DNA of 64,000 nucleotides, from the IMG/VR virus record IMGVR_UViG_3300033156_000141, positions 19,092-83,091 of that record, one strand, 5' to 3'. The translations under genes and the position numbers were made by a program. Of the stretch, positions 1,147 through 55,209 are shown piece by piece (the stretch's first letter is position 1; each line of letters begins with the position of its first letter). The notes under the pieces are model-generated. The model was not told where the DNA came from and made no database searches. It saw only the letters and a list, made by a program, of their open reading frames with translations. Origin of the DNA: a virus (lineage: Duplodnaviria > Heunggongvirae > Uroviricota > Caudoviricetes).

Positions 1147-1683
1147 GTATTTAGAACGGGAAGACAATGCAAAGTATGTGTATCTCCACATAGAGCTGAA
1201 ATAGAAGAGCTTAGACTCAAAAAGAAACTAAGATATATTGATATTAAACAAATTATCAAGAAGAAGTATGGTGAAGACATAGCTATTTCTTCCTTAAGTA
1301 GGCATTTTACTAAGCATGTAGAGGAATATTACAAAGCTTCTCTTCAAGCTGATAGATTCAGACTTAGATACATCAAGGAACAGATTAATGCTATTGTTAG
1401 AGCTGCCAAATCTATTAGAGAGCAAATGGAGATACTGGAACAGCAACTAAGACATGTAGTTGATCGTATGGATGATCCAGATGCTAGGAAGGAAGCTAGA
1501 GAGATAATGAGATCTACAAGAGAATTAGTAGAGCTAATGTTTAGATTTGAGGATAAGTTCAAGACTGACTCTGTTACTCAGTCTGAGATATATGAGAAGA
1601 TAATGCTCTGTATAAGAGACTTTCCTCCAGAGCTAATTAACAAGTTCATAGAAAGATGGGAAGAGGTATTCTCTGAGGGTTAG
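1147..1683 (+). CDS. putative small-terminase-like DNA-binding protein with CxxC zinc motif; start codon unresolved
   Basis: Frame open from the SD AAGGAGGT at 1141; translation ...GRQCKVCVSPHRAEIEELRLKK... Sits immediately upstream of the large terminase. No ATG/GTG/TTG in frame before 1426. Confidence 0.3.
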   Translation, partial: VFRTGRQCKVCVSPHRAEIEELRLKKKLRYIDIKQIIKKKYGEDIAISSLSRHFTKHVEEYYKASLQADRFRLRYIKEQINAIVRAAKSIREQMEILEQQLRHVVDRMDDPDARKEAREIMRSTRELVELMFRFEDKFKTDSVTQSEIYEKIMLCIRDFPPELINKFIERWEEVFSEG

Positions 1684-1688
1684 TAACT

Positions 1689-3050
1689 ATGCCTGTTCCA
1701 ATACAGCTAAAGATAATTCAATGGTACAAAGATCCTTCTTCATTTTTTAGAGACTTGTATCATCAAGAGCCATTTCCATATCAAGCTAGAGTTCTTTCGT
1801 ATCTTCCAGATCTGAATCTTAGAAGAATTCTTATACTCTCAGCTGCAGGAACTGGAAAGTCAAAGCTTTTAGCTTGTATCGCTCTTTGGCTAGCTTTAGT
1901 ATATAGTTACTATCATAGAAAGAAATACGATGTGGTTATAGTTTCTGGTTCAGCTGAGCAGTCTAGATCATTGTATGAGTATTCAGCTGTTCCTCTTAAA
2001 GAGAATGATATATTTGATGAAGTAATAGATGGTGAAGTCCTAAAGACAATTACAAGATTCAAAACAAAGTCCGTAGTAAGAGCTTTGCCATTATCTCTTA
2101 AAGCTATTCAGGGTAAGCATGTACCAGCTGTTATAATAGATGAAGCTGCACTAGTAGATGACTTTACAATAAATGATACTTATCGTATAGTTGGAGGATT
2201 CGAAGACTCTTTAATTATTCTAAGTGGAACTCCAATGGAGTATACATCAAAGTTCGTAGAGATGTGGTTGGATAAGAAGACATACCCAGATTATTTTGAT
2301 CTTTCAGAAGACAAGAGAACTCCTACTACATGGGCTAGATTTACTTGGTCAGCTATGGACTGTCCTAGATTTACAGAGGAAGAGATAGAAGAAGCTAGAA
2401 GAAATCTTACTGAGGAACAATTTAGAATATTCTGGGAAGGGATTCCATATCCAGTTACTAATACTGTGGTACCTATAGACGATATTAGAAAGTGTTCTAT
2501 TGGGATACACAAGTTTAGATATGATCCAAGTAGAAAGAATGGTAAGGTCATATTTGGTATAGACTATGGATATAGAGATTTATCTGTTATTGTAGTTGCT
2601 AACAAGATTGATGACATGTACAGAATTATTGATGTAGCTGAGTGGAATAGAACTAAGTATGAGAATATTCAGGATTGGATAGAAGCTTATGCCATGAGAT
2701 ACAGACCAGACTATGTGTTTGTAGATCTGAATCCTAAAGGGGAGTCTCAGAGAACAGTGGATAGACTACGGATGAAAGGAATAATGATTGAAGCTGTTGA
2801 CCTAGCTAAGGAGCTTGGAACACTACAAGTCAGAATGAAGACTTTGTTTGAGAAGGAGAAGATACTTGTACCAGAGGAATTTCAACCACTATTAAATGAG
2901 CTTAGACTGTATACATGGGATAAGAGAAAGGGAGATGATAGAGTAACTGCATTGATGCTTTCTCTAAGAGACATAGAGGAGAATAGACAGAGTACTGATA
3001 TCTATTACAAAGTAGCTAGAACAAGGAGAAGACCACTTGTCCTATTCTAG
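1689..3050 (+). CDS. terL: terminase large subunit (ATPase + nuclease)
   Basis: Walker A LSAAGTGKSKL, Walker B AVIIDEAALV, ILSGTP coupling motif, C-terminal RNaseH-like nuclease region with FVDLN; 453 aa. Confidence 0.8.
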   Translation: MPVPIQLKIIQWYKDPSSFFRDLYHQEPFPYQARVLSYLPDLNLRRILILSAAGTGKSKLLACIALWLALVYSYYHRKKYDVVIVSGSAEQSRSLYEYSAVPLKENDIFDEVIDGEVLKTITRFKTKSVVRALPLSLKAIQGKHVPAVIIDEAALVDDFTINDTYRIVGGFEDSLIILSGTPMEYTSKFVEMWLDKKTYPDYFDLSEDKRTPTTWARFTWSAMDCPRFTEEEIEEARRNLTEEQFRIFWEGIPYPVTNTVVPIDDIRKCSIGIHKFRYDPSRKNGKVIFGIDYGYRDLSVIVVANKIDDMYRIIDVAEWNRTKYENIQDWIEAYAMRYRPDYVFVDLNPKGESQRTVDRLRMKGIMIEAVDLAKELGTLQVRMKTLFEKEKILVPEEFQPLLNELRLYTWDKRKGDDRVTALMLSLRDIEENRQSTDIYYKVARTRRRPLVLF

Positions 3051-4974: not shown

Positions 4975-5022
4975 TGCAACATGCTTATTAAGACTGTTGC
5001 AAAACCCCAAATCTTATAAACC
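4975..5022 (+). promoter_or_regulatory. promoter repeat copy 3
   Basis: TGCAACATGCTTATTAAGACTGTTGCAAAACCCCAAATCTTATAAACC. Confidence 0.65.
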
Positions 5023-5053
5023 TAAATAGTAACTATGATTTGGTGACATCGAA

Positions 5054-5329
5054 ATGATAACAAGAGAATGGTATAGAATAGACGAAATATGTTGTAACAG
5101 CTATTGGGTAACTCATCCTTCAGTTTATTACAAAGATGAATACATCAGAGCTAGCATTGGAATTTATGGAGATCAGGATTTAATCAATAAGAAAATGGAT
5201 AAGATAAAGAAGAAGATGAAAAGCTTAGGGTATGAATATTTCAAGTCCACTAAGCTAAAACCAACTGCATTAGGTAATGAAGTCTTTAGAATAACCTTGT
5301 TCTTTAGAAAACCAAGAGGTAACAAGTAG
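5054..5329 (+). CDS. hypothetical protein (91 aa)
   Basis: ORF preceded by promoter repeat 3. Confidence 0.5.
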   Translation: MITREWYRIDEICCNSYWVTHPSVYYKDEYIRASIGIYGDQDLINKKMDKIKKKMKSLGYEYFKSTKLKPTALGNEVFRITLFFRKPRGNK

Positions 5330-5334
5330 TGAAG

Positions 5335-5484
5335 ATGACTTTAGAAGAGATCTATCAAAGAACAAAAGATACGACTGATAAGGAGAAGGTTGAATATTTC
5401 TTTCAATACTTTCCAGAGAACCAAGCTAGAGCTTTAGTTGCTATGCTTATCATTCAACCGACTATTAGACGTAATCGTCAATAA
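5335..5484 (+). CDS. hypothetical small protein (49 aa)
   Basis: ATG ORF MTLEEIYQRTKDTTDKEKVEYFFQYF... not in the supplied track because of its length; fills the gap before promoter repeat 4. Confidence 0.3.
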   Translation: MTLEEIYQRTKDTTDKEKVEYFFQYFPENQARALVAMLIIQPTIRRNRQ

Positions 5485-5531
5485 TCCAACATCCTTATTA
5501 AGATTGTTGCATAACCCTTAAGCTTATATAG
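5485..5531 (+). promoter_or_regulatory. promoter repeat copy 4
   Basis: TCCAACATCCTTATTAAGATTGTTGCATAACCCTTAAGCTTATATAG. Confidence 0.65.
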
Positions 5532-5557
5532 ATGTAGCTTAGTAATTAAAGGTCAAG

Positions 5558-6133
5558 GTGATGTGGATGAGAGTAATAGAGTTAGATGATAATACAATCT
5601 ACATGGACGATGAATCCTTCAAATGCCAAATCGAAGAAGATAAGGACATCTATCTAGGATTGATATGTGAAGCTATTGATTTTAGAGAGATAGACAGTAG
5701 ATTCGATGATGATCCATATCCCGTAGTTGTGGAGACTCAAATCGTAGTAGCTCCAAGATCTCTAGATAGTAACTATCTTGAAAGAGCTAATGAAGGAGTA
5801 GATCTTGAGCTAAACAATGATGAAATTAAAGTCTATGTGTCCTACCGTTATTCTGGAGGAGTTCCTGTAAACATGGAATCTATCAAGGGATCTGTAACTT
5901 GTGATGTAGATTCTGAAGTTAGAACACAAAAGCATAGACTCTATGGAGAGATTAAGGTTAGACACTTCAGAACAGTAGCTGATGCTCTCAAGTATGCTAA
6001 AACAGTCTATAAACACAATGCTCAAGCTGTATTTGGTTTAGTAGGATTCTATCTTGATAGAACATTAAACCTAATAGGGACTACAGGATGGGACATAATA
6101 AATCTACAAGCTAATAATGTCGATTATATGTAG
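5558..6133 (+). CDS. hypothetical protein (191 aa)
   Basis: ORF preceded by promoter repeat 4; followed by a T10 run. Confidence 0.5.
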   Translation: MMWMRVIELDDNTIYMDDESFKCQIEEDKDIYLGLICEAIDFREIDSRFDDDPYPVVVETQIVVAPRSLDSNYLERANEGVDLELNNDEIKVYVSYRYSGGVPVNMESIKGSVTCDVDSEVRTQKHRLYGEIKVRHFRTVADALKYAKTVYKHNAQAVFGLVGFYLDRTLNLIGTTGWDIINLQANNVDYM

Positions 6134-6151
6134 TCTTTTTTTTTTCCTATT

Positions 6152-6198
6152 TTACAACAAGCTTATTAAGTATGTTGCATAACCCCAAGCTTTATAAG
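6152..6198 (+). promoter_or_regulatory. promoter repeat copy 5
   Basis: TTACAACAAGCTTATTAAGTATGTTGCATAACCCCAAGCTTTATAAG directly after an oligo-T terminator. Confidence 0.65.
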
Positions 6199-6230
6199 TC
6201 TAGTTACTAACTATGGTTCGGTGAAATCGG

Positions 6231-6674
6231 ATGTTTGGACTACTTGAAATGTTGGGATTAGCTAGTCAAGTAAAAACAGAGAATATCAAGAAATTCTATT
6301 TTAAGGGACTAGAAGCTACAATAACAGAGTCTAGTGATCCCTCAAAGACCGTTGAGATAGTAATAAGGAAAGAATGGAAATACACAGGATTTGAAAACAT
6401 GGAAGAAGCTCTAGAGTTTGCTGGGGAAAAGACAGCTGAACTTAGCTCTCTTAATGAGCTAAAGCCTATACTAGAGAAAGTCTCTGATCTACTGAGAGAA
6501 TACAACATCAGCTTTGATGAGTTTCTAAAGATAGCTAAGGAAGCTCTTGATGAGAAGATAGAGAGACCTAATCTTCCATTACCACCAAATTTTTTATGGA
6601 CATCAGAACCAGAGAACGAACAAGATATATCGTCTAGTGAAGCTTCTGAACATGAGGATTCAGAAGCTTCCTAG
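6231..6674 (+). CDS. hypothetical protein with acidic/Ser-rich C-terminus (147 aa)
   Basis: ORF preceded by promoter repeat 5. Confidence 0.5.
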   Translation: MFGLLEMLGLASQVKTENIKKFYFKGLEATITESSDPSKTVEIVIRKEWKYTGFENMEEALEFAGEKTAELSSLNELKPILEKVSDLLREYNISFDEFLKIAKEALDEKIERPNLPLPPNFLWTSEPENEQDISSSEASEHEDSEAS

Positions 6675-26942: not shown

Positions 26943-28220
26943 ATGGTAATCGGAGGTAATGATATGTCTGAAGAAATAATACATGACTTAGAGAGACCAA
27001 TATATGTAGTAGACCATAAGCAGCTGATAGACATAATAAAGAAAACATATGAAGTACAGGGATCTCTATTTATTCAAGGAGCTATAGGAATAGGTAAATC
27101 GTATACAGTGAGAGAAGCTGCTAGACAGCTAGCTAATGAATATTCACTTGACTTTCTAGAGACAAAAGCTCCTATACTTCATCCAGATAAGTTCTGTCTA
27201 GTGGATCAGAGATTCTCTCAGAAGGATGCTGGTGAAGTGTTAGGACTACCAGAGGACTATGCTATAGTAAAATACAATGGACATATAGAGCTTGTACCAA
27301 TAAAACACTTTGATATATTCACAGCTAGATGGAATGGTGAGTATGAAATAATAGACTATACAACCAAATGGACAGCTCCAGTATGGTTTCCTAGAGAAGG
27401 TAGAGGCATAATATTTGCAGATGAGCTACCACTAGCACCACCACTAGTCAGAAATGCAATATGGGAGCTTATCAATGATAGAGCTCTAGGAGATTATGAA
27501 TTACCAGATGGTTGGATAGTGGTAGCAGCTGGTAACAGAGGACATATAGATGGATGTCCAGAATTTAGATTTGAAGCTCCATTATGCAATAGATTTGCAT
27601 GGTATGAACTAGAAACACCAACTGTAGAAGAATGGACTCCTTGGGCAGTAGACAATGACATAGATCCTAGAATCATATCGTTTCTAAGAGTCAAGACATC
27701 CAATATCTATACATTTAATCCAAAGAGCAAAGAGAAAGCTTTTGCTACACCTAGAGCTTGGGAGAAAGTAAGTGATATGATTAAAGGAGTAGAAGACTTA
27801 GACAAAGTGTTTATGTATGCTAGTGGCAGAGTTGGATCTTATGTAGCTCAAGAGTTTGTATCGTTTCTAAGAATGAGAGACAGATTAGCTCCTCCAGAAG
27901 AGTTCATTAGAAATCCAGATAAAATAGAGATACCTAAAGAAAACGATCTATTATATGCTCTATGCACTAACCTTACAGAGTATCTTTACTACTACGTAAA
28001 GAACAAGCCTGAAGATAAAGCTAGAGAGGTTCTTAGAAGAATATTCATAATCGGAGATAGAATACCTAGAGAATACTGTGCATTTATGCTAAAGATGATA
28101 AAGAGCATGGTACCTGATTTCTTTGATAGAAACGTACTGAAGCTTAAAGAATGGAGTCTATTTGTTCCAACAATAGGAAAATATATATTAGCTATGGAGA
28201 GAGAAGATGAGGATGAGTAG
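26943..28220 (+). CDS. MoxR-family AAA+ ATPase
   Basis: Walker A GAIGIGKS, Walker B GIIFADELP, sensor VVAAGNRG; immediately upstream of a VWA protein (canonical MoxR-VWA pair). Confidence 0.8.
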   Translation: MVIGGNDMSEEIIHDLERPIYVVDHKQLIDIIKKTYEVQGSLFIQGAIGIGKSYTVREAARQLANEYSLDFLETKAPILHPDKFCLVDQRFSQKDAGEVLGLPEDYAIVKYNGHIELVPIKHFDIFTARWNGEYEIIDYTTKWTAPVWFPREGRGIIFADELPLAPPLVRNAIWELINDRALGDYELPDGWIVVAAGNRGHIDGCPEFRFEAPLCNRFAWYELETPTVEEWTPWAVDNDIDPRIISFLRVKTSNIYTFNPKSKEKAFATPRAWEKVSDMIKGVEDLDKVFMYASGRVGSYVAQEFVSFLRMRDRLAPPEEFIRNPDKIEIPKENDLLYALCTNLTEYLYYYVKNKPEDKAREVLRRIFIIGDRIPREYCAFMLKMIKSMVPDFFDRNVLKLKEWSLFVPTIGKYILAMEREDEDE

Positions 28221-28222
28221 AT

Positions 28223-30508
28223 ATGTCTCCAGAAGAGAAGATTACTAAAGCTAGAGTTCAGATGATATCTAAACAGCCATTCTTTGGAGTGCTATGTATG
28301 TCACTGAGATTCAAACCAGATCCCAATGAAGATACAGCAGCTGTTACTCCTTATGGTGTTGTGTACTATAATCCAGACTATATCAAGAAATTGACTACTG
28401 AACAAGTAAAAGGATTGATATGCCATGAAGTAATGCATGTAGCTCTTAGACATCTAGAAAGAGAAGAAGGAAGAGATCATTTCAAAGCTAATATAGCTCA
28501 AGATCTAGCAATAAACCCACTAATACTACAGACATTTCAACTACCACCAGGAGCTCTATACATGAGAGAATATGAAGGTATGTCATGGGAAGAGATATAT
28601 GATAAATTATCAGATCCTAAGAGATTTGAGTGTAATGGAGACTGTGATAACTGTCCATTTAAACAGAAGAATCCTAATGGATTTGGTGGAGTACCATCAG
28701 TAGTTGTAGTGTGTAGAAAACGTGGTAGCTTAGACAAACATGTAACTAGAAAAGACATAGAAGAAGCTAGAAGAAAAGTAGAGGATGGTGTTATATCAAG
28801 GTCTGACTTAGATAAGCTAGGGATACCAAAAGGTGCTTTAGATGATAAAGAAACTGTGAATTGGAGAAAAGTACTGAAAGATGCATGGCATCATGCTAAA
28901 TGTTTAGATCCAAACACACAAATTCTAATGGCAGACAAATCCTTCAAAAGAATAACAGATGTCAAGAAAGGTGATGAAATACTAGGAATTGATGAGAATG
29001 GCAACATTGCTAAAGGAGTAGTCCTTCAGAAGTTCAGAACCATTGTTAATCAGAAAGTTACTATTGAAGCTAGTAATGGTTCAAAGCTGGTTTGTTCACC
29101 TGAGCACTTCATATATAATGGTAAATTCACTAAAGCTGAGGACTTAGACTTAAATACCACATTACCTATAGTAACTATGATTAGCAATGAGGAAGTGGAC
29201 TCAAGGAGAGATAGAATATCTGAAACAAAACTATGGAGTGAAGTCACTAACTCAGATATCAAAGGAGCTCAAGAGAACAAGAATATCTGTGTACAAGAAA
29301 GCTCACAGACTGGGACTGAAACCAAAACTAAAATCTCTAGAGACAATAAACTATTATCGTCCTCAAATATCAGAGAAGGATATAGCTTACTTAGCAGGAT
29401 TGATAGATGGAGAGGGAACAATAACTATCCAAGTCAGAAGGTCTCCAAGAAAGATAAGAGACAAATATGGAAGAATAATAAAGATTTATCAGAATCATTC
29501 TTATACTCCAATCATTTCAATATTCAATACTTCAGAGACTCTAATGGACTGGATGAGGAAACTGGGATGGAATGTACAAGTAACAAAACCAAAGAATCCA
29601 CGTTATCAGACCAAGTACCATTTCTACATTTGTGGATACGGGATTCTTCCATTTCTAGAACAAATAGAACCTTATCTAAGAATCAAGAAAATACACGCAA
29701 GGATATGCATTTTGTGGATTCTAGAGAGACTGGAACAGAACAGACTGGACAAACCAACAGAGAAGATGAAAGAGTACTTGAACGATCTTCAGATATTAAA
29801 CCAGAGAAAAGATGGGTATCAATTAAGCAAATTAAGAAGGAAGATACTAGAGAAGTATTCTATGATCTAAAGACAAGCTTGGGAAACTACATAGCAAATG
29901 GCTTTATTGTTCATAATAGTATGGGTAAAGCTCCATTAGGTATTGAAAGACTTATAGAAGACCTAGTAGAACCACAGATCAATTGGTTAGAATATCTACC
30001 TCAGCTTATTGTAAGACATATGCCTTATGACTACACATACTCTAGACCTTCTAAGAAATCGATAGCTGCTGGATACTATCTACCAAGTGTACTAAAGTCA
30101 GGAATAAAAGGAGTAGTAGTTATAGATACATCTGGCTCTATGAGTATGGAAGATTTAAGAGATGGATTATCACAGATAATAGGAATATTCAGAGAAGTAC
30201 CTAATGCAGAACTTACTATCTATAGCTGTGATGCAATGCTGTATGAAGCTCAAACTATTACATCAGAATACGACTTAAACACATTACAACTCAAGGGTGG
30301 AGGAGGTACAGACTTTAGACCTATGTTTCAGAAAATCCAAGAAGGTGGAGATGATGTTGATCTACTAATCTATATTACTGATGGATATGGAGAATATCCT
30401 ACACCAGATATGATAAATCCAAATATGACAGTAATATGGGTTATTACTAGAGATGGTGATGAAACTAGAGTACCAGACTACTTTGATCTAGTAGTGAAGA
30501 TAAAATGA
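28223..30508 (+). CDS. VWA-domain protein with N-terminal HExxH metallopeptidase-like domain (DUF2201-like), interrupted by an intein
   Basis: HEVMHVALRH (HExxH); MIDAS VVVIDTSGSMSMEDL; intein blocks CLDPNTQIL... and ...FYDLKTSLGNYIANGFIVHN|S. Confidence 0.75.
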   Translation: MSPEEKITKARVQMISKQPFFGVLCMSLRFKPDPNEDTAAVTPYGVVYYNPDYIKKLTTEQVKGLICHEVMHVALRHLEREEGRDHFKANIAQDLAINPLILQTFQLPPGALYMREYEGMSWEEIYDKLSDPKRFECNGDCDNCPFKQKNPNGFGGVPSVVVVCRKRGSLDKHVTRKDIEEARRKVEDGVISRSDLDKLGIPKGALDDKETVNWRKVLKDAWHHAKCLDPNTQILMADKSFKRITDVKKGDEILGIDENGNIAKGVVLQKFRTIVNQKVTIEASNGSKLVCSPEHFIYNGKFTKAEDLDLNTTLPIVTMISNEEVDSRRDRISETKLWSEVTNSDIKGAQENKNICVQESSQTGTETKTKISRDNKLLSSSNIREGYSLLSRIDRWRGNNNYPSQKVSKKDKRQIWKNNKDLSESFLYSNHFNIQYFRDSNGLDEETGMECTSNKTKESTLSDQVPFLHLWIRDSSISRTNRTLSKNQENTRKDMHFVDSRETGTEQTGQTNREDERVLERSSDIKPEKRWVSIKQIKKEDTREVFYDLKTSLGNYIANGFIVHNSMGKAPLGIERLIEDLVEPQINWLEYLPQLIVRHMPYDYTYSRPSKKSIAAGYYLPSVLKSGIKGVVVIDTSGSMSMEDLRDGLSQIIGIFREVPNAELTIYSCDAMLYEAQTITSEYDLNTLQLKGGGGTDFRPMFQKIQEGGDDVDLLIYITDGYGEYPTPDMINPNMTVIWVITRDGDETRVPDYFDLVVKIK
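28901..29917 (+). other. intein (339 codons) within the VWA gene; Cys1 at 28901, terminal HN at 29912..29917, +1 Ser
   Basis: Block A CLDPNTQILMADKS, block B SKLVCSPEHFIY (TxxH-like), block F/G EVFYDLKT...ANGFIVHNS in the host reading frame. Confidence 0.7.
29187..29870 (+). CDS. LAGLIDADG homing endonuclease with N-terminal HTH, encoded in the +1 frame inside the intein
   Basis: IAYLAGLIDGEGTITIQ; N-terminal HTH GEIEYLKQNYGVKSLTQISKELKRTRISVYKKAHRLGLK; a different frame from the host ORF, which nevertheless stays open. Confidence 0.65.
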   Translation: MRKWTQGEIEYLKQNYGVKSLTQISKELKRTRISVYKKAHRLGLKPKLKSLETINYYRPQISEKDIAYLAGLIDGEGTITIQVRRSPRKIRDKYGRIIKIYQNHSYTPIISIFNTSETLMDWMRKLGWNVQVTKPKNPRYQTKYHFYICGYGILPFLEQIEPYLRIKKIHARICILWILERLEQNRLDKPTEKMKEYLNDLQILNQRKDGYQLSKLRRKILEKYSMI

Positions 30509-30598
30509 AACCATTCTGTTAAAATATCTTATTAGTAGATTACCACCTAAGAAATAGAACCATTAGTTCTCAAATGTCTTTATGAGGAGGATGAACAT

Positions 30599-30814
30599 AT
30601 GGATATAAGACTACCAAATATTAGAATCTATGCTAGAATAGAATATATCTCTATGGATGCAGAGGGCAATATAGTTATAGGACTATCTAAACGTACAAGC
30701 AGAGATACTACTCTAGAGCTTCTAAGAGCATACGAAGGTAAGGAAGTCTACATGTTAGTAGCTGAAGGTAAATGGGCTATAGATAATAAGCACTCAAAGT
30801 CACAGGAGGAATAG
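30599..30814 (+). CDS. hypothetical protein (71 aa)
   Basis: ORF with SD GAGGAGGATG. Confidence 0.4.
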   Translation: MDIRLPNIRIYARIEYISMDAEGNIVIGLSKRTSRDTTLELLRAYEGKEVYMLVAEGKWAIDNKHSKSQEE

Positions 30815-30816
30815 AA

Positions 30817-31086
30817 ATGTGGGAAGAAGATAGCTCAGACAGACTACTAAAGATACTACTAGTGATTGGTATAATAGCTGGTGTGTCTCTAGGTATATTC
30901 TTTGGTACTATGTTTAGATCAGTAGATACAGGATACGGTGTACTATTAGTAGATCCAATGACTGGTACTATTTCTGATCCAATACTTGGACCTACATGGT
31001 TCATAAAGATGCCTTGGTTCAGAACAGTATATATTTATTATGCTACAGAGTCTGTGGGAATGTGGGGAGATAGAGTACTAGCATAA
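30817..31086 (+). CDS. SPFH/band-7 (stomatin/prohibitin-like) protein, N-terminal fragment (TM + start of SPFH domain)
   Basis: TM helix LLVIGIIAGVSLGIFFG then YGVLLVDPMTGTIS...GPTWFIKMPWFRTV, typical of the SPFH N-terminus; ends ...GDRVLA. Confidence 0.6.
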   Translation: MWEEDSSDRLLKILLVIGIIAGVSLGIFFGTMFRSVDTGYGVLLVDPMTGTISDPILGPTWFIKMPWFRTVYIYYATESVGMWGDRVLA

Positions 31087-31742
31087 GATTTATACAAGAC
31101 ACTTTCCAAGTATCTTGTATGAAATTCACAACAGAAGAACTAGAGTTTATCAAATTAAACCATTCTAAGATGACGATTAAAGAGATAGCACAAGCATTAA
31201 ACAAAGATCCTCGTAGAGTATCAGAAGCAGCTATTTCATTAGGTCTAAGGAAATATCCTAAACGTGGTACTAAAGTATCTAAAAGATGTGAACAGTGTGG
31301 TCAGCTCTTCTTCAAAGGATATAGAGAATCCAGATCTCATTTCAGCTCTAGAAGATTTTGTAGTGTTGAGTGTTTTAGAGAATATATGAAAGAACATAGG
31401 AATGAAACATTTCCTAGTAACATTCATGAGATGTGTGCAAATGGAAGAAGAGCTGAACGAGAGGCGTACAAATTACTTAAGAACGAATTTGATTTCTTAG
31501 CTAAGAGTGTCTCGATATGTGACTACATTGGAGTCAAGGACAACAAGATATACTTAATAGAGATTAAGTACAAGAATGCTAAGTTATCAAAGAAACAGAA
31601 GAAAGCATACAAGGTACTTGGAGAGTGTTATAAGGTTGTTAGAATTAGCTAGTACTCCTCCAAGGCACAGATCCATATGCAGAGTACCCCGCTATTAAGT
31701 GCTTTACCTCTGATCAGTTAGAAGCTACTATAGATATTATGG
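31085..31742 (+). mobile_element. putative group I-type intron (or HEG cassette) interrupting the SPFH gene, carrying nuclease ORF 31119..31652
   Basis: Exon sequences are contiguous at the protein level (…DRVLA|(L/M)VRWSLDP matches the SPFH consensus V.VDAVV.YRV.DP). The insert changes the frame (length not a multiple of 3), and begins after a U and ends in G if the boundaries are 31085/31742. Confidence 0.4.
31119..31652 (+). CDS. HTH + zinc-ribbon + PD-(D/E)xK-like nuclease (homing-endonuclease-like)
   Basis: N-terminal HTH EELEFIKLNHSKMTIKEIAQALNKDPRRVSEAAISLGLRKY is paralogous to the LAGLIDADG ORF HTH; CEQCGQ...CSVEC; C-terminal ICDYIGVKDNKIYLIEIKYK (D...E.K). Confidence 0.5.
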   Translation: MKFTTEELEFIKLNHSKMTIKEIAQALNKDPRRVSEAAISLGLRKYPKRGTKVSKRCEQCGQLFFKGYRESRSHFSSRRFCSVECFREYMKEHRNETFPSNIHEMCANGRRAEREAYKLLKNEFDFLAKSVSICDYIGVKDNKIYLIEIKYKNAKLSKKQKKAYKVLGECYKVVRIS

Positions 31743-32356
31743 TACGATGGAGTCTAGATCCGACTAAGCTCAAAGAACTTTACTTGTCATATCCAAACTT
31801 AGATTGGGAAGACAGAGCTATAGCTTCTACTGTGAGAGAGACTATTAGATTTGTTACTAAGAACTTTACAGCTACACAGATGATAACTAGAAGAGAAGAA
31901 GTGGCATATGCTATTCAAGAAGCTGTATTCGATGCTCTACATAGTACGGAATCTCTTAAAGGAGCTTTAGTGCATCTAGAGTTCGACCTCAGAAACATAG
32001 CATTACCAGAGAAATACATGCAAGCTATCGAAGATAAGATGGTAGCTGAGCAACAGAAGATACAAGCGGAATTTGAGAGAGAACGTATATTGGTTCTAGC
32101 TGATGCAGAGGCACAACAGAAGATACGAATAGCTGAAGCTGAGGCTGAGACTAGACTGATAGTTGCTAATGCTACTAGAGAATCTATAGAGATGATAGCT
32201 AGAGCAGCTGGTATCGATGATGCAGAGGACTTAGCAGAGCTGTATCTATATCTAGAAGCACTTAAGGAAATAGCACCAAATGTAGATGTTCTAATAGTAT
32301 CTACAGATGAACAGGGAAATCCAATAATATACTCTCTACCAAAGTCTGGTAAGTAG
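31739..32356 (+). CDS. SPFH/band-7 protein, C-terminal fragment
   Basis: VRWSLDPTKLKELYLSY..., IQAEFERERILVLADAEAQQKIRIAEAEAETRLIVANA = SPFH domain + characteristic AEAEA coiled coil. Confidence 0.6.
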   Translation: MVRWSLDPTKLKELYLSYPNLDWEDRAIASTVRETIRFVTKNFTATQMITRREEVAYAIQEAVFDALHSTESLKGALVHLEFDLRNIALPEKYMQAIEDKMVAEQQKIQAEFERERILVLADAEAQQKIRIAEAEAETRLIVANATRESIEMIARAAGIDDAEDLAELYLYLEALKEIAPNVDVLIVSTDEQGNPIIYSLPKSGK

Positions 32357-32394
32357 GGGTAGATGTACTAAGTACTACTACCCCTACATTTTTT

Positions 32395-32880
32395 ATGGTG
32401 AGTCTGATGTATCTATTATATGGCACTGAGAAAGTATTCAAAGTTACAGATATAAGCTTGACATTATTTGTAACTGGATTAACTACAGCAGTAAGTTCGT
32501 TATTATTCATGATAATGTACTGGTGTTCAAATATCTCAATTTATGAAGTCTGTATCTGTGTTCTAATTACTTCATTGGTATCTCTTCTTTTCTTTCTTAT
32601 ATCAACACCAAGAATAGAACGTTATGCTATTCCTTTATCTAAAGATAGGTATCTTGTGAAAACTTACTTGACTTTATCTGAAATACCATCTACTATTCGT
32701 AATTGTTTTGAGAAAGCTGAAATGCTAGGACTAAGACCTGAAATCTATGCTGTAGTTACATTTAAAGAGCTAATGAACTTCCGATATAAGCGAAGGAATC
32801 TCGTAGTTATATCAAGACTAAATGGTTTCAATAGTTGCTATCTTATATTCTCAAATGATCTAGAGGAGAAGATTAAATGA
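32395..32880 (+). CDS. integral membrane protein (161 aa)
   Basis: Multiple hydrophobic helices. Confidence 0.45.
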   Translation: MVSLMYLLYGTEKVFKVTDISLTLFVTGLTTAVSSLLFMIMYWCSNISIYEVCICVLITSLVSLLFFLISTPRIERYAIPLSKDRYLVKTYLTLSEIPSTIRNCFEKAEMLGLRPEIYAVVTFKELMNFRYKRRNLVVISRLNGFNSCYLIFSNDLEEKIK

Positions 32881-33179
32881 ATCGATATGGAGCTGAATTT
32901 TATATCGATGGATTGATTGGATATGTTCTATACGTTTTATCAATTAGGAATTTCAACAAGCGTTTAATACGACTTGAGGCAATTGATGAGATATTGTTAG
33001 AAAATCTTCTTTATCTCAAGAGAGTTATTAGAGAGATGATAGATGACAAGAAAATGACAGATAGTAAAGCTCTTAGTATACTATCAGAGTCATTACCTTA
33101 TAATGTTCAGAATTTTCTTTTTGAATTAAAGTCATTAAATGAGAAGGTTGGAAGACTTCTATTGATGTTTGAGCTCTAA
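32877..33179 (+). CDS. hypothetical protein (100 aa)
   Basis: ORF overlapping the previous stop (ATGA). Confidence 0.45.
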   Translation: MNRYGAEFYIDGLIGYVLYVLSIRNFNKRLIRLEAIDEILLENLLYLKRVIREMIDDKKMTDSKALSILSESLPYNVQNFLFELKSLNEKVGRLLLMFEL

Positions 33180-53127: not shown

Positions 53128-53329
53128 GATAGTTACTAAGTCTGGATACAAGATAATACAGGAAACATATAGAGTATGGAAGATCATATCTCCTAAAGGA
53201 AAGTTATACTATGTATGGTTGTGTAACAATAAGCTTGTATGTTCATGTCCTGCTTATTCGAAATATAGAGGACATTGTAAACACATAATGATGATGAATT
53301 TGTATGTATTTAAGGAGGGAATGAAATGA
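53117..53329 (+). CDS. SWIM zinc-finger protein
   Basis: CSCPAYSKYRGHCKHIMMM = CxCxnCxH SWIM signature. Confidence 0.55.
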   Translation: MVAEIVTKSGYKIIQETYRVWKIISPKGKLYYVWLCNNKLVCSCPAYSKYRGHCKHIMMMNLYVFKEGMK

Positions 53330-55209
53330 CAGAGTTAGAAGAAATTAAAGGAGTGGGAGCAAGTATAGCTGAACAGCTAAAACAAGCTGGGATTACATCA
53401 GCTGAAGATCTATCAGTAAGAGATCCAGAAGAGATCAAAGCTTTGCTTAATTGTTCACTAGCTAAAGCTAAGAAGCTTATTACAGCTGCCAAAGATGTAA
53501 CAGTCAATGCAGTACACATCTATACTGGTGAGGAACTTAATGAAGAGAGAAAAAGCAAGATTCAGAGAATCTCTACCAATAGCTCAGAGCTTGACAAGAT
53601 ATTTGGTGGTGGAGTACCTACTGATGCATTAACAGCTTTTACTGGACAGTTTGCTTGTATACCATACAATACTTGGATAGCTATTCCAACTAAAACTCTT
53701 AAGAATGGAAAGAAGAAATCATTCATAGAGCTTAGATATCTAAAGGAAGGAGACTCTATATTAGCTATTGATGAGAATGGTAATTTAGTAGAGGACAGAG
53801 TGATATACAAGAAACGAAGAAGACTATTCTATGATGAGCCATTTCTGACAATAGTAACTAATGAAGGTCATGAGCTAACAGTCACTGGAAATCATCCAGT
53901 ACTTACAGAGCATGGATTTGTCAGAGCTATGGACTTGAAAGTAGGAGATCACATAATCTGTCTAGATAATGTCCCAGAGAAATACAAGAGACATTCCAAG
54001 TTTTTGATTGGAGGAGTAACATCTGGTTCGTGGAAGAAAGGACATAAATTTACTGAGGAAGAAAAAAGGAAAATGAGTGAAGCTAGGAAAAGATTCTTTA
54101 GAGAGCATCCAGAGAGAGCTAGAGAAATCTCAAGAAAAGGAGCTATATCGCTTAGAAAGAAATTACTAAGAAGTATCCCAAAGAGTCAAATAGAGACTCT
54201 AAAGAAAGTATTTGGAATTGAACTAGAACATCCGATTAAGCTACCAGATAGATTAGTAATATCTGACATAGCGATTCCATCAAAGAAAATAGCTATTTTT
54301 AGTGACGGAGAATATTGGCACAAAGATAGAGAAAAAGATATAGAAGATACAAACAAACTAATAGAAGCTGGTTGGACTGTATATAGAATCACTGATTCTT
54401 CAATGAATTCGAATATACCTAAAGTATCAATAGAGTTCAAAGATCCAGTAATAGTTGAGATCAGAGAGGCTCAAAGAATAAATTATGTATGGGACATAGG
54501 GACAGAGAACCATCATACATTTATAGCTAATGGGATTGTTACTCACAATACTGGAAAGACACAGCTCTGTAAACAGCTGGTAGTTAATATGAAAAAACAA
54601 TACAACAGAAAATCAGTCTGGATAGAGACAGAACCACAGACATGTATACTTGATCGAATCAAGCAAATAGCTATAGCTAATGGAATAAATTTCGATCTAA
54701 AGAATGATATATACGTTATACCAGCTAAGTTCATAAAGACACCAGTACATCTGTTCAAAGCTTACGAAATGGTAGAGAGACTAATAACAGACAAGAAAGA
54801 GGATATCGGACTAATAGTAATAGATAGCTTCAATGCTCCTTTCAGAGCTGCATATGCTGGTAGAGAGACTCTGGGAAAGAGATCAGCTGAGTCTGGAAGA
54901 CACATTGGATTTCTTCAACAGCTAGCTTCACAATATAATATAGCTATAGTTATGACACTTCAAGTAATGGGAGTCCCAGACTCTGGACAACAGCTAGCTA
55001 GTATCAAGAGATATGGAATAAGAGATGCACCAGTAGCTGCACATGTAGTGAAGCATGGAGTAAACTTTCTAGTGTCTCTAGAACAAGTATCAGCTAACGA
55101 CAAGACATGGAGAGCTATTATAGCTGATGGTCCAGTACCTAGAAATGAATGTACGTTTATAATAGATGAGACTGGTATTAGAGACTTTACCAAGAGACGT
55201 GGAGTATAG
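53326..55209 (+). CDS. radA: RadA/Rad51-family recombinase with N-terminal HhH domain, interrupted by an intein in the P-loop
   Basis: EEIKGVGASIAEQLKQAGITSAEDL (HhH); Walker A split GQFA|intein|TGKTQLCKQL; Walker B GLIVIDS; 627 aa with intein, ~329 aa without. Confidence 0.85.
   Translation: MTELEEIKGVGASIAEQLKQAGITSAEDLSVRDPEEIKALLNCSLAKAKKLITAAKDVTVNAVHIYTGEELNEERKSKIQRISTNSSELDKIFGGGVPTDALTAFTGQFACIPYNTWIAIPTKTLKNGKKKSFIELRYLKEGDSILAIDENGNLVEDRVIYKKRRRLFYDEPFLTIVTNEGHELTVTGNHPVLTEHGFVRAMDLKVGDHIICLDNVPEKYKRHSKFLIGGVTSGSWKKGHKFTEEEKRKMSEARKRFFREHPERAREISRKGAISLRKKLLRSIPKSQIETLKKVFGIELEHPIKLPDRLVISDIAIPSKKIAIFSDGEYWHKDREKDIEDTNKLIEAGWTVYRITDSSMNSNIPKVSIEFKDPVIVEIREAQRINYVWDIGTENHHTFIANGIVTHNTGKTQLCKQLVVNMKKQYNRKSVWIETEPQTCILDRIKQIAIANGINFDLKNDIYVIPAKFIKTPVHLFKAYEMVERLITDKKEDIGLIVIDSFNAPFRAAYAGRETLGKRSAESGRHIGFLQQLASQYNIAIVMTLQVMGVPDSGQQLASIKRYGIRDAPVAAHVVKHGVNFLVSLEQVSANDKTWRAIIADGPVPRNECTFIIDETGIRDFTKRRGV
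53656..54549 (+). other. intein (298 codons) in the RadA Walker A loop; carries a Vsr-like PD-(D/E)xK endonuclease domain
   Basis: Begins CIPYNTWIAI..., ends ...IANGIVTHN followed by Thr; internal IAIFSDGEYWHKDREKDIEDTNKLIEAGWTVYRITD. Confidence 0.7.

Follow-up and report, generated by a model that had tools for sequence, protein, structure and literature searches.

The DNA analysed here, which we call the window, is a stretch of 64,000 nt from a tailed virus (positions 19,092 to 83,091 of the IMG/VR record IMGVR_UViG_3300033156_000141). It contains an intein inserted in a gene of the DUF2201 family and, inside this intein but in another reading frame of the same strand, a complete homing-endonuclease gene (HEG). 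The features of this locus are as follows, with the evidence that defines them in parentheses; coordinates are those of the window unless another locus is named.

28223..30508, + strand: host gene, a single uninterrupted open reading frame (ORF) for a 761-aa precursor that includes the intein (direct reading)
28901..29917, + strand: intein, 339 codons, in the host frame (splicing blocks, Pfam and a 1017-nt insertion relative to the related contig L004)
28901..29185, + strand: N-terminal splicing region, intein residues 1-95, with blocks A (CLDPNT) and B (SPEH) (Pfam)
29149..29177, + strand: candidate internal expression signal, made of a TATA-like CTTAAATA at 29149-29156 and the palindrome TAGTAACTA at 29169-29177
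29186..29815, + strand: host-frame read-through linker, intein residues 96-305, hydrophilic and stop-free (-1 reading of the HEG)
29187..29870, + strand: nested HEG, 227 aa, in the +1 frame (ORF reading, homologues and AlphaFold2 model)
29391..29417, + strand: LAGLIDADG motif, LAGLIDGEG, HEG residues 69-77 (invariant alignment columns)
29816..29917, + strand: C-terminal splicing region, intein residues 306-339, with blocks F (EVFYDL) and G (NGFIVHN) (splicing blocks and Pfam)

The host product comprises a DUF2201_N putative metallopeptidase with an HEVMH motif and a DUF2201 VWA-like domain, and is interrupted by the intein (Pfam PF13203, E = 1.4e-33, and PF09967, E = 6e-17). The first-pass annotation, made from the sequence of the window alone, had called it a VWA gene; this label holds for the VWA-like domain but is incomplete, as the metallopeptidase is also there. 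An exact look-up of the host protein returned no exact match on record, and blastn of positions 26900-31000 returned no match among the INPHARED phages.

The splicing residues of a class 1 (Hint-domain) intein are all present. Cys1 (28901-28903) opens block A, block B occupies residues 66-69 (29096..29107), and the intein ends at 29917 with ...EVFYDLKTSLGNYIANGFIVHN, read as NGFIVHN, whose terminal Asn (29915-29917) is followed by a serine at position +1 (29918-29920). With the Pfam profile Intein_splicing (PF14890) the score is 52.0 bits (cut-off 35.8), for a match that runs from position 2 to 155 of 155, the whole profile, and is divided by a long insert. The N-terminal region matches the Pfam families Intein_splicing, Hint and Hom_end_hint, and the first 55 nt or so of the C-terminal region are shared with the 3′ end of the HEG. 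A sequence search of the PDB with the intein yielded marginal matches only (E of 0.04 to 0.9), weak ones being to the Prp8 intein for the N-terminus and to the C-fragment of the Neq Pol split intein for the C-terminal region. With this set of residues, the intein is predicted to be active in protein splicing.

The ends of the intein are fixed by an intein-less allele. The 107.9-kb viral contig L004 (IMGVR_UViG_3300033149_001657) is collinear with the window, with about 85-90% nucleotide identity over most of the compared region and 75% in the leftmost block. Its orthologue of the host gene is a 422-aa ORF that reads ...AWHHAS|SMGKAP... across the site; homology stops at position 28896 of the window and restarts at 29921, and the difference is exactly 1017 nt. 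Intein-plus and intein-minus alleles therefore both exist in related viruses. The intein had been placed at 28901-29917 from its clear splicing blocks alone, and the Pfam score and the empty allele prove all of these coordinates to be accurate. The same comparison reveals an extra 133-aa ORF in L004 (5266..5667), between the VWA gene and the next gene, that is absent from the corresponding positions 30509..30598 of the window.

The nested HEG is bounded by +1-frame stops at 29178 and 29868. Three +1-frame stops lie within eight codons upstream of its ATG, the last of them at 29178-29180, and its own TAA (29868-29870) sits in block F of the intein, within the codons that the host frame reads as DLK. 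The product, which contains IAYLAGLIDGEGT, begins with a helix–turn–helix (HTH) domain (residues about 3-45), followed by a single-motif LAGLIDADG core. A search of 5.8 billion proteins with this sequence found ten relatives. The best of them are P0001 (E = 3e-26) and P0002 (E = 3e-19), of 263 and 238 aa, which match over 96-99% of the query. Both have the layout of the window HEG, in which HTH repeats ('WT.eE...L' type, one or two in number) are followed by one LAGLIDADG core. They are stand-alone genes among small phage-like genes, and the homology with such free-standing relatives begins at the Met of the window HEG. The HEG ORF itself and the nested ORFs of its relatives described below are absent from the protein databases. 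The HEG keeps the family-invariant columns Y68, L69, G71-G77, K167, L204 and N205; among these, E76, the acidic residue at the catalytic position, is invariant in both HEG alignments (A1 and A2). Five homologues (P0003, P0004, P0005, P0008 and P0010) bear precomputed LAGLIDADG_1 or LAGLIDADG_3 domains.

An AlphaFold2 model of the HEG product, computed with the alignment of homologues, has a pLDDT of 85.8 and a pTM of 0.75. When it is compared with the PDB using Foldseek, the top 45 matches are all I-MsoI, I-CreI, I-CvuI or E-DreI (E of 5e-8 to 6e-6), I-MsoI and I-CreI being the best (E = 5e-8, probability 1.0). The model shares with I-CreI and I-MsoI the single LAGLIDADG motif and the alpha-beta-beta-alpha-beta-beta-alpha core (Foldseek E of 5e-8 to 1e-7, target-normalised TM score of 0.62-0.66), whereas these two enzymes are encoded by group I introns, have no N-terminal HTH and are only 16-23% identical to it in sequence. 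By its homologues and its modelled fold, the nested gene is a single-motif LAGLIDADG endonuclease gene of the free-standing type. By analogy with I-CreI its product is probably homodimeric, and it would be expected to act as a nuclease, for which the junction in L004, ...GCATGGCATCATGCCAGC|TCGATGGGTAAAGC..., is the candidate cleavage target. Just upstream of the insertion site in L004 lies the palindrome GGCATCATGCC, read by eye, whose role as a possible target is speculative. The LAGLIDADG endonuclease with its own ATG and N-terminal HTH had been recognized in the first-pass annotation, and its free-standing type had been proposed there; both stand.

The open host frame

The host frame contains 0 stops over the overlap with the HEG. 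In the window ORFs, stops occur in the two alternative frames at 0.10 and 0.13 per codon, and no alternative frame stays open for more than 57 codons (44 other window ORFs of at least 150 codons), compared with 229 codons here. When the HEG protein is re-encoded with synonymous codons drawn from the codon usage of the window (20,000 trials), the host frame acquires 20 stops on average and never fewer than 7. As a control, the alternative frames of the canonical intein in the RadA gene, which also lies in the window, contain 36 and 31 stops. The avoidance is visible codon by codon: a T before AA, AG or GA would make a host-frame TAA, TAG or TGA, and T-ending codons precede HEG codons that begin with AA, AG or GA in 0 of 75 cases, compared with 48 of about 151 before other codons (Fisher p of about 3e-10). 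The host frame is thus kept open by selection. T-ending HEG codons before AA, AG or GA have been selected away because the loop must stay stop-free. That both frames are open is a real arrangement and far beyond chance, as had been claimed from the length of the open frame.

The polypeptide read in the host frame over this region has 75% disorder-promoting residues, and Pfam finds no domain in it; its SRIDRWRG, for instance, is the alternate reading of GLIDGEG of the HEG. The first-pass annotation had proposed codon-periodicity statistics on both frames; codon-usage likelihoods separate the two regimes. The values in the flanks are +0.4 to +0.5 bits/codon for the host frame and about -1 for the +1 frame, and those in the N-terminal splicing region are +0.39 and -0.98 bits/codon, respectively. 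Over the overlap they are +0.23 bits/codon for the +1 frame and +0.07 for the host frame, so that the coding signal moves to the +1 frame in the overlap only.

Recurrence, selection and expression at related loci

We scanned DNA collections with the HEG alignment and examined about 230 loci for the presence of a longer ORF that spans the HEG in a different frame. The scan was made at the DNA level because gene callers leave out ORFs that are nested in longer ones. The same architecture is found in at least 17 further non-redundant loci of the roughly 230 screened, in four kinds of host gene:

Glycosyltransferases: L005, L006, L087, L088, L093, L094, L098, L099, L100, L111 and L124
DUF2201 metallopeptidase/VWA genes, at a site other than that of the window: L091, L092 and L101
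RadA/KaiC-like ATPase, in the P-loop: L150/L151
Radical-SAM-like gene on a contig of a Bathyarchaeota metagenome-assembled genome: L165, 2457..4157

Intein ends (Cys1 ... HN, then C, S or T) are present in all of these further loci, and the HEG lies at +1 relative to the host frame in every one of them, at GC contents from 34% to 64%. The best match to the window HEG among the nested loci is that of L165 (37-41% identity); the two HEGs end alike, in ...KILE(K/R)YSMI and a TAA located within the DLK codons of block F. The pooled count of T-ending codons before AA, AG or GA (0 of 1101) is partly circular, as the loci were chosen for an open host frame; the values that can be used instead are those of each locus, set against the approximately 230 loci screened, and the p-value of the window itself.

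The comparison with related genes proposed in the first-pass annotation thus turns up an intein-less allele in L004 and the same out-of-frame composite in the DUF2201 genes of L091, L092 and L101. The insertion site of these three, WN(I/V/Q)AC(D)|C..., corresponds to the uninterrupted ANIAQD|LAINP of the window protein. As it differs from the site occupied in the window, the DUF2201 family has at least two sites for overlapping-frame inteins. The P-loop site of the +1-frame LAGLIDADG intein of L150/L151 is equivalent to that of the RadA intein of the window. The same RadA/KaiC-like ORF of L150 carries, at about 1282..1971, a second intein (CVGLDSD...FLVHN|T), which hides a +1-frame LAGLIDADG ORF of about 140 aa without HTH (MQTKEERYL...AAYIAGILDGEGS...) and is read as ...SRNSRWRG... 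in the host frame; this gene therefore holds two overlapping-frame composites.

Relatives that are close enough to each other allow the selection on each frame to be measured. The glycosyltransferase inteins of L006, L088 and L093 give gapless alignments with 58-74% nucleotide identity. In their N-terminal splicing region, substitutions number 12, 15 and 27 at the three host codon positions, and in the overlap 89, 45 and 37, host position 1 being HEG position 3. Since the substitutions in the overlap peak at the third position of HEG codons, purifying selection in these relatives acts on the HEG frame, and their host frame is only kept open. When the window is compared with L165, the HEG frames are 41% identical, the host-frame linkers 21% (not a real similarity), and the N-terminal and C-terminal splicing regions 29% and 41%, respectively. 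These values agree with the earlier proposal that the splicing halves are fused through a translated, unselected and disordered linker.

The uniform offset can be related to the genetic code. At +1, the host frame lags the HEG by one base and its stops are read as T|AA, T|AG or T|GA, so that an NNT to NNC change in the HEG, which is always silent, removes any of them. A dynamic programme over synonymous codons reaches a minimum of 0 host-frame stops in the observed relation and of at least 2 in the other one, where a Met before an A-initial codon makes stops unavoidable. We infer that the uniform +1 offset has a cause in the code, as only the observed relation lets all stops go silently. Common ancestry of the composites is an alternative cause, and one that is compatible with the first.

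A table of nearest-neighbour identities mixes nested and free-standing HEGs and is too shallow to count origins. In it, the free-standing HEG closest to the nested HEG of L165 is that of L002 (50% identity over the core). In L002, this HEG (5001..5717) lies directly upstream of a radical-SAM gene (5719..6480), and the HEG of L165 is nested in an intein of a radical-SAM-like gene; this pairing may record a passage of the HEG between life as a free-standing gene and life inside an intein.

How the nested gene is expressed can be approached from the same loci. A Shine–Dalgarno-like motif lies upstream of the nested ATG, inside the host frame, in L006, L088, L092, L093, L094, L098 and L101, and several of these motifs are strong (for example ctaGGAGGTGgttATG in L006). 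Because seven nested HEGs have such motifs, we argue that the HEG is initiated independently in these relatives, in line with the independent translation suggested by the first-pass annotation; the HEG of the window virus would also be initiated on its own. There, TAGTAACTA ends 10 nt before the ATG of the HEG, and the pair CTTAAATA/TAGTAACTA also precedes several other genes, for example those at 5054, 6776 and 7215. This hints at an expression signal of the HEG within the intein. Given the archaeal flavour of the genome (see the last section), the HEG transcript may plausibly be leaderless or have a short leader.

At the level of the window, the 9-bp palindrome TAGTWACTA is strongly over-represented, with 153 matches at no more than one mismatch compared with 43 expected (0 of 100 shuffles reach this count). 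Examples are found at 1681, 5027, 6743, 7188, 15907, 24356, 26930, 29169, 44455 and 47032. The sites often lie 10-30 nt upstream of start codons, between a CTTAWAWA box and a GGTGA Shine–Dalgarno motif, and such positions make TAGTWACTA a likely viral promoter, operator or regulator-binding motif.

Interpretation and known systems

The reading that we favour, to which we give a probability of about 0.85, is that of a bipartite selfish element coding in two overlapping frames, namely a splicing intein and a separately made HEG of the free-standing type. It draws on the anatomy of the intein, its precise insertion, the avoidance of stops, the homology and fold of the HEG, the recurrence of the arrangement and the frame-specific purifying selection in relatives. 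Frame 0 would be translated straight through into the 761-aa precursor, in which the Hint pieces (about 95 aa on the N side and about 34 aa on the C side) would fold together over an unstructured loop of about 210 aa and excise themselves, thereby restoring the 422-aa metallopeptidase/VWA protein seen in L004. The loop would be functionless in itself and required only to be stop-free. In frame +1, the HTH–LAGLIDADG endonuclease would be made separately from the ATG at 29187, driven by an internal Shine–Dalgarno site in the bacterial relatives and possibly by a short-leader or leaderless transcript from the TATA-like signal in the window virus. Where a co-infecting relative has the host gene without the intein, the enzyme would cut this allele, and recombinational repair would then copy the intein and the HEG together. 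Homing of this kind may well be ongoing.

Several points weigh against this bipartite element. No Shine–Dalgarno motif precedes the ATG at 29187, and the proposed internal promoter depends on short AT-rich motifs. As the nearest HEG is only 37-41% identical, so that the selection on the window copy itself is unmeasurable, this copy may have been inactivated recently. The single HEG sequence scores under the cut-off of Pfam LAGLIDADG_1 (PF00961; 20.5 versus 23.1 bits), as it does for LAGLIDADG_3 (PF14528; 13.7 versus 22.5 bits), and its family assignment therefore rests on the homologues and on the fold. A homologue search with the 339-aa host-frame sequence found no close relative of the window intein (1323 candidates gathered from the protein databases, none at E <= 1e-3). 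The AlphaFold2 model of the intein from its single sequence has a pLDDT of 30, and the Hint fold with a disordered loop thus rests on profiles and composition. The frames are those of a single assembly. Finally, a 227-codon gene would have had to enter the intein in spite of its approximately 20 expected host-frame stops; the speculation that the composite arose in GC-rich DNA, which has almost no stops in its alternative frames, would be consistent with the GC-rich members of the family.

Two of the other explanations had been put forward in the first-pass annotation. One of them supposes a pair of compensating single-base errors, near 29181-29187 and near 29870, that have put a normal in-frame LAGLIDADG domain into the wrong frame. 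The single assembly and the closeness of the frame changes to the ends of the ORF would fit such errors, but the middle of the host frame would then be untranslated and should hold about 20 stops, and it holds 0. The first error would, moreover, be confined to the 6 nt between the last +1 stop (29178-80) and the ATG, the same architecture and offset are present in at least 17 independent assemblies at 34-64% GC, gapless alignments of diverged relatives keep both frames open, and the homology of the HEG starts at its own Met, as it does in free-standing genes. Taken together, this leaves assembly errors with next to no probability. In the other explanation, the intein survives as a functional mini-intein, and its +1 ORF has lost its function recently and is now a relic. 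The lack of a close relative on which to gauge selection in the window copy, the missing Shine–Dalgarno motif and the LAGLIDADG_1 score under the cut-off all favour decay, which is also what the homing-cycle model expects of a HEG after fixation (cited in 10.1101/2025.01.02.630785). Yet the 227-codon ORF is intact in DNA of 35% GC, its family-invariant residues are kept, its LAGLIDADG fold is predicted with confidence, and purifying selection acts on the HEG frame of its relatives; the intein-less allele in a closely related virus means, in addition, that there are targets left to invade. We consider decay unlikely.

There are two further explanations. With both frames on the same mRNA and no Shine–Dalgarno motif before the ATG at 29187, ribosomes might shift programmatically by +1 near 29181-29189, and perhaps return near 29868, so as to fuse the endonuclease to the intein. 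However, the sequence around 29175-29190 has no evident slippery or stalling motif, the +1-frame stops reach 29180 and leave two codons for the shift, the ATG stands exactly where free-standing homologues start, and relatives have strong Shine–Dalgarno sites at that position. Frameshifting alone would not demand that the entire host frame be open either, and a scan of positions 28000-33000 with Rfam found nothing, hence no support for a frameshift element or for a group I or II intron. We judge frameshifting very improbable. The linker might also be a working polypeptide, for instance a regulatory or conditional-splicing domain: it is always kept at roughly 200 aa, it is hydrophilic, and insertions in inteins can modulate splicing. 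This proposal earns equally little credit, as the host frame shows no conservation beyond that imposed by the HEG frame, the substitutions in the overlap follow the periodicity of the HEG frame and not that of the host frame, and the host-frame query has no database match and no Pfam domain. The two alternatives of the first-pass annotation thus fall away, the assembly errors entirely and the decaying HEG as unlikely, and the bipartite element is retained.

In textbook inteins the homing endonuclease is an in-frame domain, and how the two parts came to be joined is a long-standing question. Gorbalenya, in 1998, reportedly proposed alternative-ORF endonucleases in the Synechocystis DnaX intein. 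The cyanobacterial dnaX intein has since been described as having a LAGLIDADG endonuclease whose sense-strand ORF overlaps a disordered linker read in frame, with Shine–Dalgarno motifs before the nested ORF, purifying selection in the endonuclease frame, a relaxed host frame and coexisting intein-free alleles, and its proposed origin is the secondary invasion of a mini-intein by an endonuclease (Phillips, DeSimone & Gogarten, bioRxiv 10.64898/2026.09.14.751524). The window element has the defining features of this dnaX-type arrangement, an overlapping sense-frame HEG and an open host frame, and it shares with it the LAGLIDADG endonuclease, the disordered linker and the intein-free alleles. Shine–Dalgarno motifs and frame-specific selection are shared by the relatives of the window element, whereas the window itself is without a Shine–Dalgarno motif. 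The two differ in that ours interrupts a DUF2201/VWA gene in a tailed virus, probably of archaea, and not a bacterial chromosomal dnaX, and in that its HEG has an N-terminal HTH and free-standing homologues, whereas no source endonuclease was named for dnaX. Unlike the dnaX intein, the composite is found here in several unrelated host genes; the comparison of the two covers their architecture.

Other systems share part of this organization. Inteins of actinophages contain antisense LAGLIDADG or VSR-like endonucleases and, in frame 3, an endonuclease VII-like one; these enzymes are related to free-standing phage endonucleases, an origin by invasion was proposed, and evidence points to continued mobility of the composites (Gosselin, Arsenault & Gogarten, 10.1101/2025.01.02.630785). 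The relation to free-standing endonucleases and the proposed invasion of an intein are common to both cases, but those phages are GC-rich and a +1-frame HTH–LAGLIDADG is absent from their list. In fractured genes of phage and environmental origin, a free-standing HEG lies between the halves of a split intein and shares 6-69 bp at its 3′ end with the C part (Dassa et al., 2009, PMC2677866). The window element likewise has a free-standing-type HEG between its N and C parts, with a 3′ end that overlaps the C part. In fractured genes, however, the host gene is in two ORFs and splicing occurs in trans, while the window has one ORF of 761 codons; since this host ORF is continuous, the element is not a fractured gene and its splicing would be in cis. 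The ShiLan insertion has a nested out-of-frame HNH HEG and a host frame that is stop-free across the insertion (2025, PMC11855218), but, unlike the window element, it is without a splicing domain and is thought to stay in the protein as a loop, and its nuclease is of the HNH type.

The arrangement itself has therefore already been described and belongs to a rare kind, described only recently. New here are the host lineage and the host gene, the HTH-fused single-motif HEG with free-standing relatives, the breadth across genes and the rationale in the code for the offset. With at least 17 further loci, the arrangement is less rare than one would conclude from the two recent preprints. Composites with overlapping frames show directly that a free-standing endonuclease gene can establish itself within a splicing element and persist there, with the same DNA subject to two regimes, purifying selection in one frame and, in the other, selection against stops and nothing more. 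The window offers a clean low-GC case of them in a virus that is probably archaeal, with an intein-less allele as the natural target and a canonical intein as a control. For annotation, they imply that gene callers miss nested HEGs and report a 'disordered' intein insert instead. We may wonder whether all of these elements form one widespread and unrecognized lineage, a mini-intein with a +1-frame HTH–LAGLIDADG whose offset is caused by the code, moving as a unit between unrelated genes and across the boundary that separates archaeal viruses or Bathyarchaeota from the genomes of bacteria or phages. This is a tentative proposal, which we hold to be somewhat less probable than its negation; if true, the composites would be living intermediates of a path in which splicing comes first and the endonuclease invades later, standing between canonical inteins and fractured genes.

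Neighbouring elements

Other products of the window are ParB, a radical-SAM protein, an RNA ligase, a DNA polymerase of family B, the large subunit of terminase and a RadA whose N-terminus is an HhH domain. This gene content points to a tailed virus, probably of archaea, in which the genes for replication and recombination are of archaeal type. Its second intein is canonical:

53656..54549, in the gene 53326..55209: RadA intein, in the P-loop of an archaeal-type RadA, GQFA|C...THN|TGKTQ

Its nuclease is an in-frame PD-(D/E)XK domain, similar to REase_MTES_1575 (E = 9e-5).

A further insertion, of 592 nt and thus not a multiple of three, occupies 31072..31663 in the next gene but one after the intein gene. 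It divides an SPFH/band-7-like gene into two exons (30817..31071 and 31664..32356), and the corresponding gene of L004 is one ORF of 315 aa, with the junction ...GMWGD|GTDPYAEYP.... The ends of the insertion can be folded into a near-canonical bulge–helix–bulge, with an outer helix UGUG/CACA, a central helix of 4 bp formed by GGAG (31066-69) and CUCC (31657-60), and an inner helix of 10 bp (GAGUACUAGC/GCUAGUACUC). The 3-nt bulge AU|A coincides with the 5′ junction, and the bulge AA|G(G) with the 3′ junction. The insert carries a 177-aa ORF (31119..31652) with an HTH like that of the nested HEG, a zinc finger and a weak VRR-NUC match; a scan of the IMG/VR viral contigs found no relatives of it. 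We propose the insert as a candidate intron of the archaeal tRNA-endonuclease type, with a homing-nuclease-like gene, in a viral protein-coding gene. In the literature covered by our search, bulge–helix–bulge introns in protein-coding genes are reported from archaeal cbf5, and in archaeal viruses only as putative 12-bp insertions (PMC2738675). This candidate is possibly more unusual than the overlapping-frame intein.

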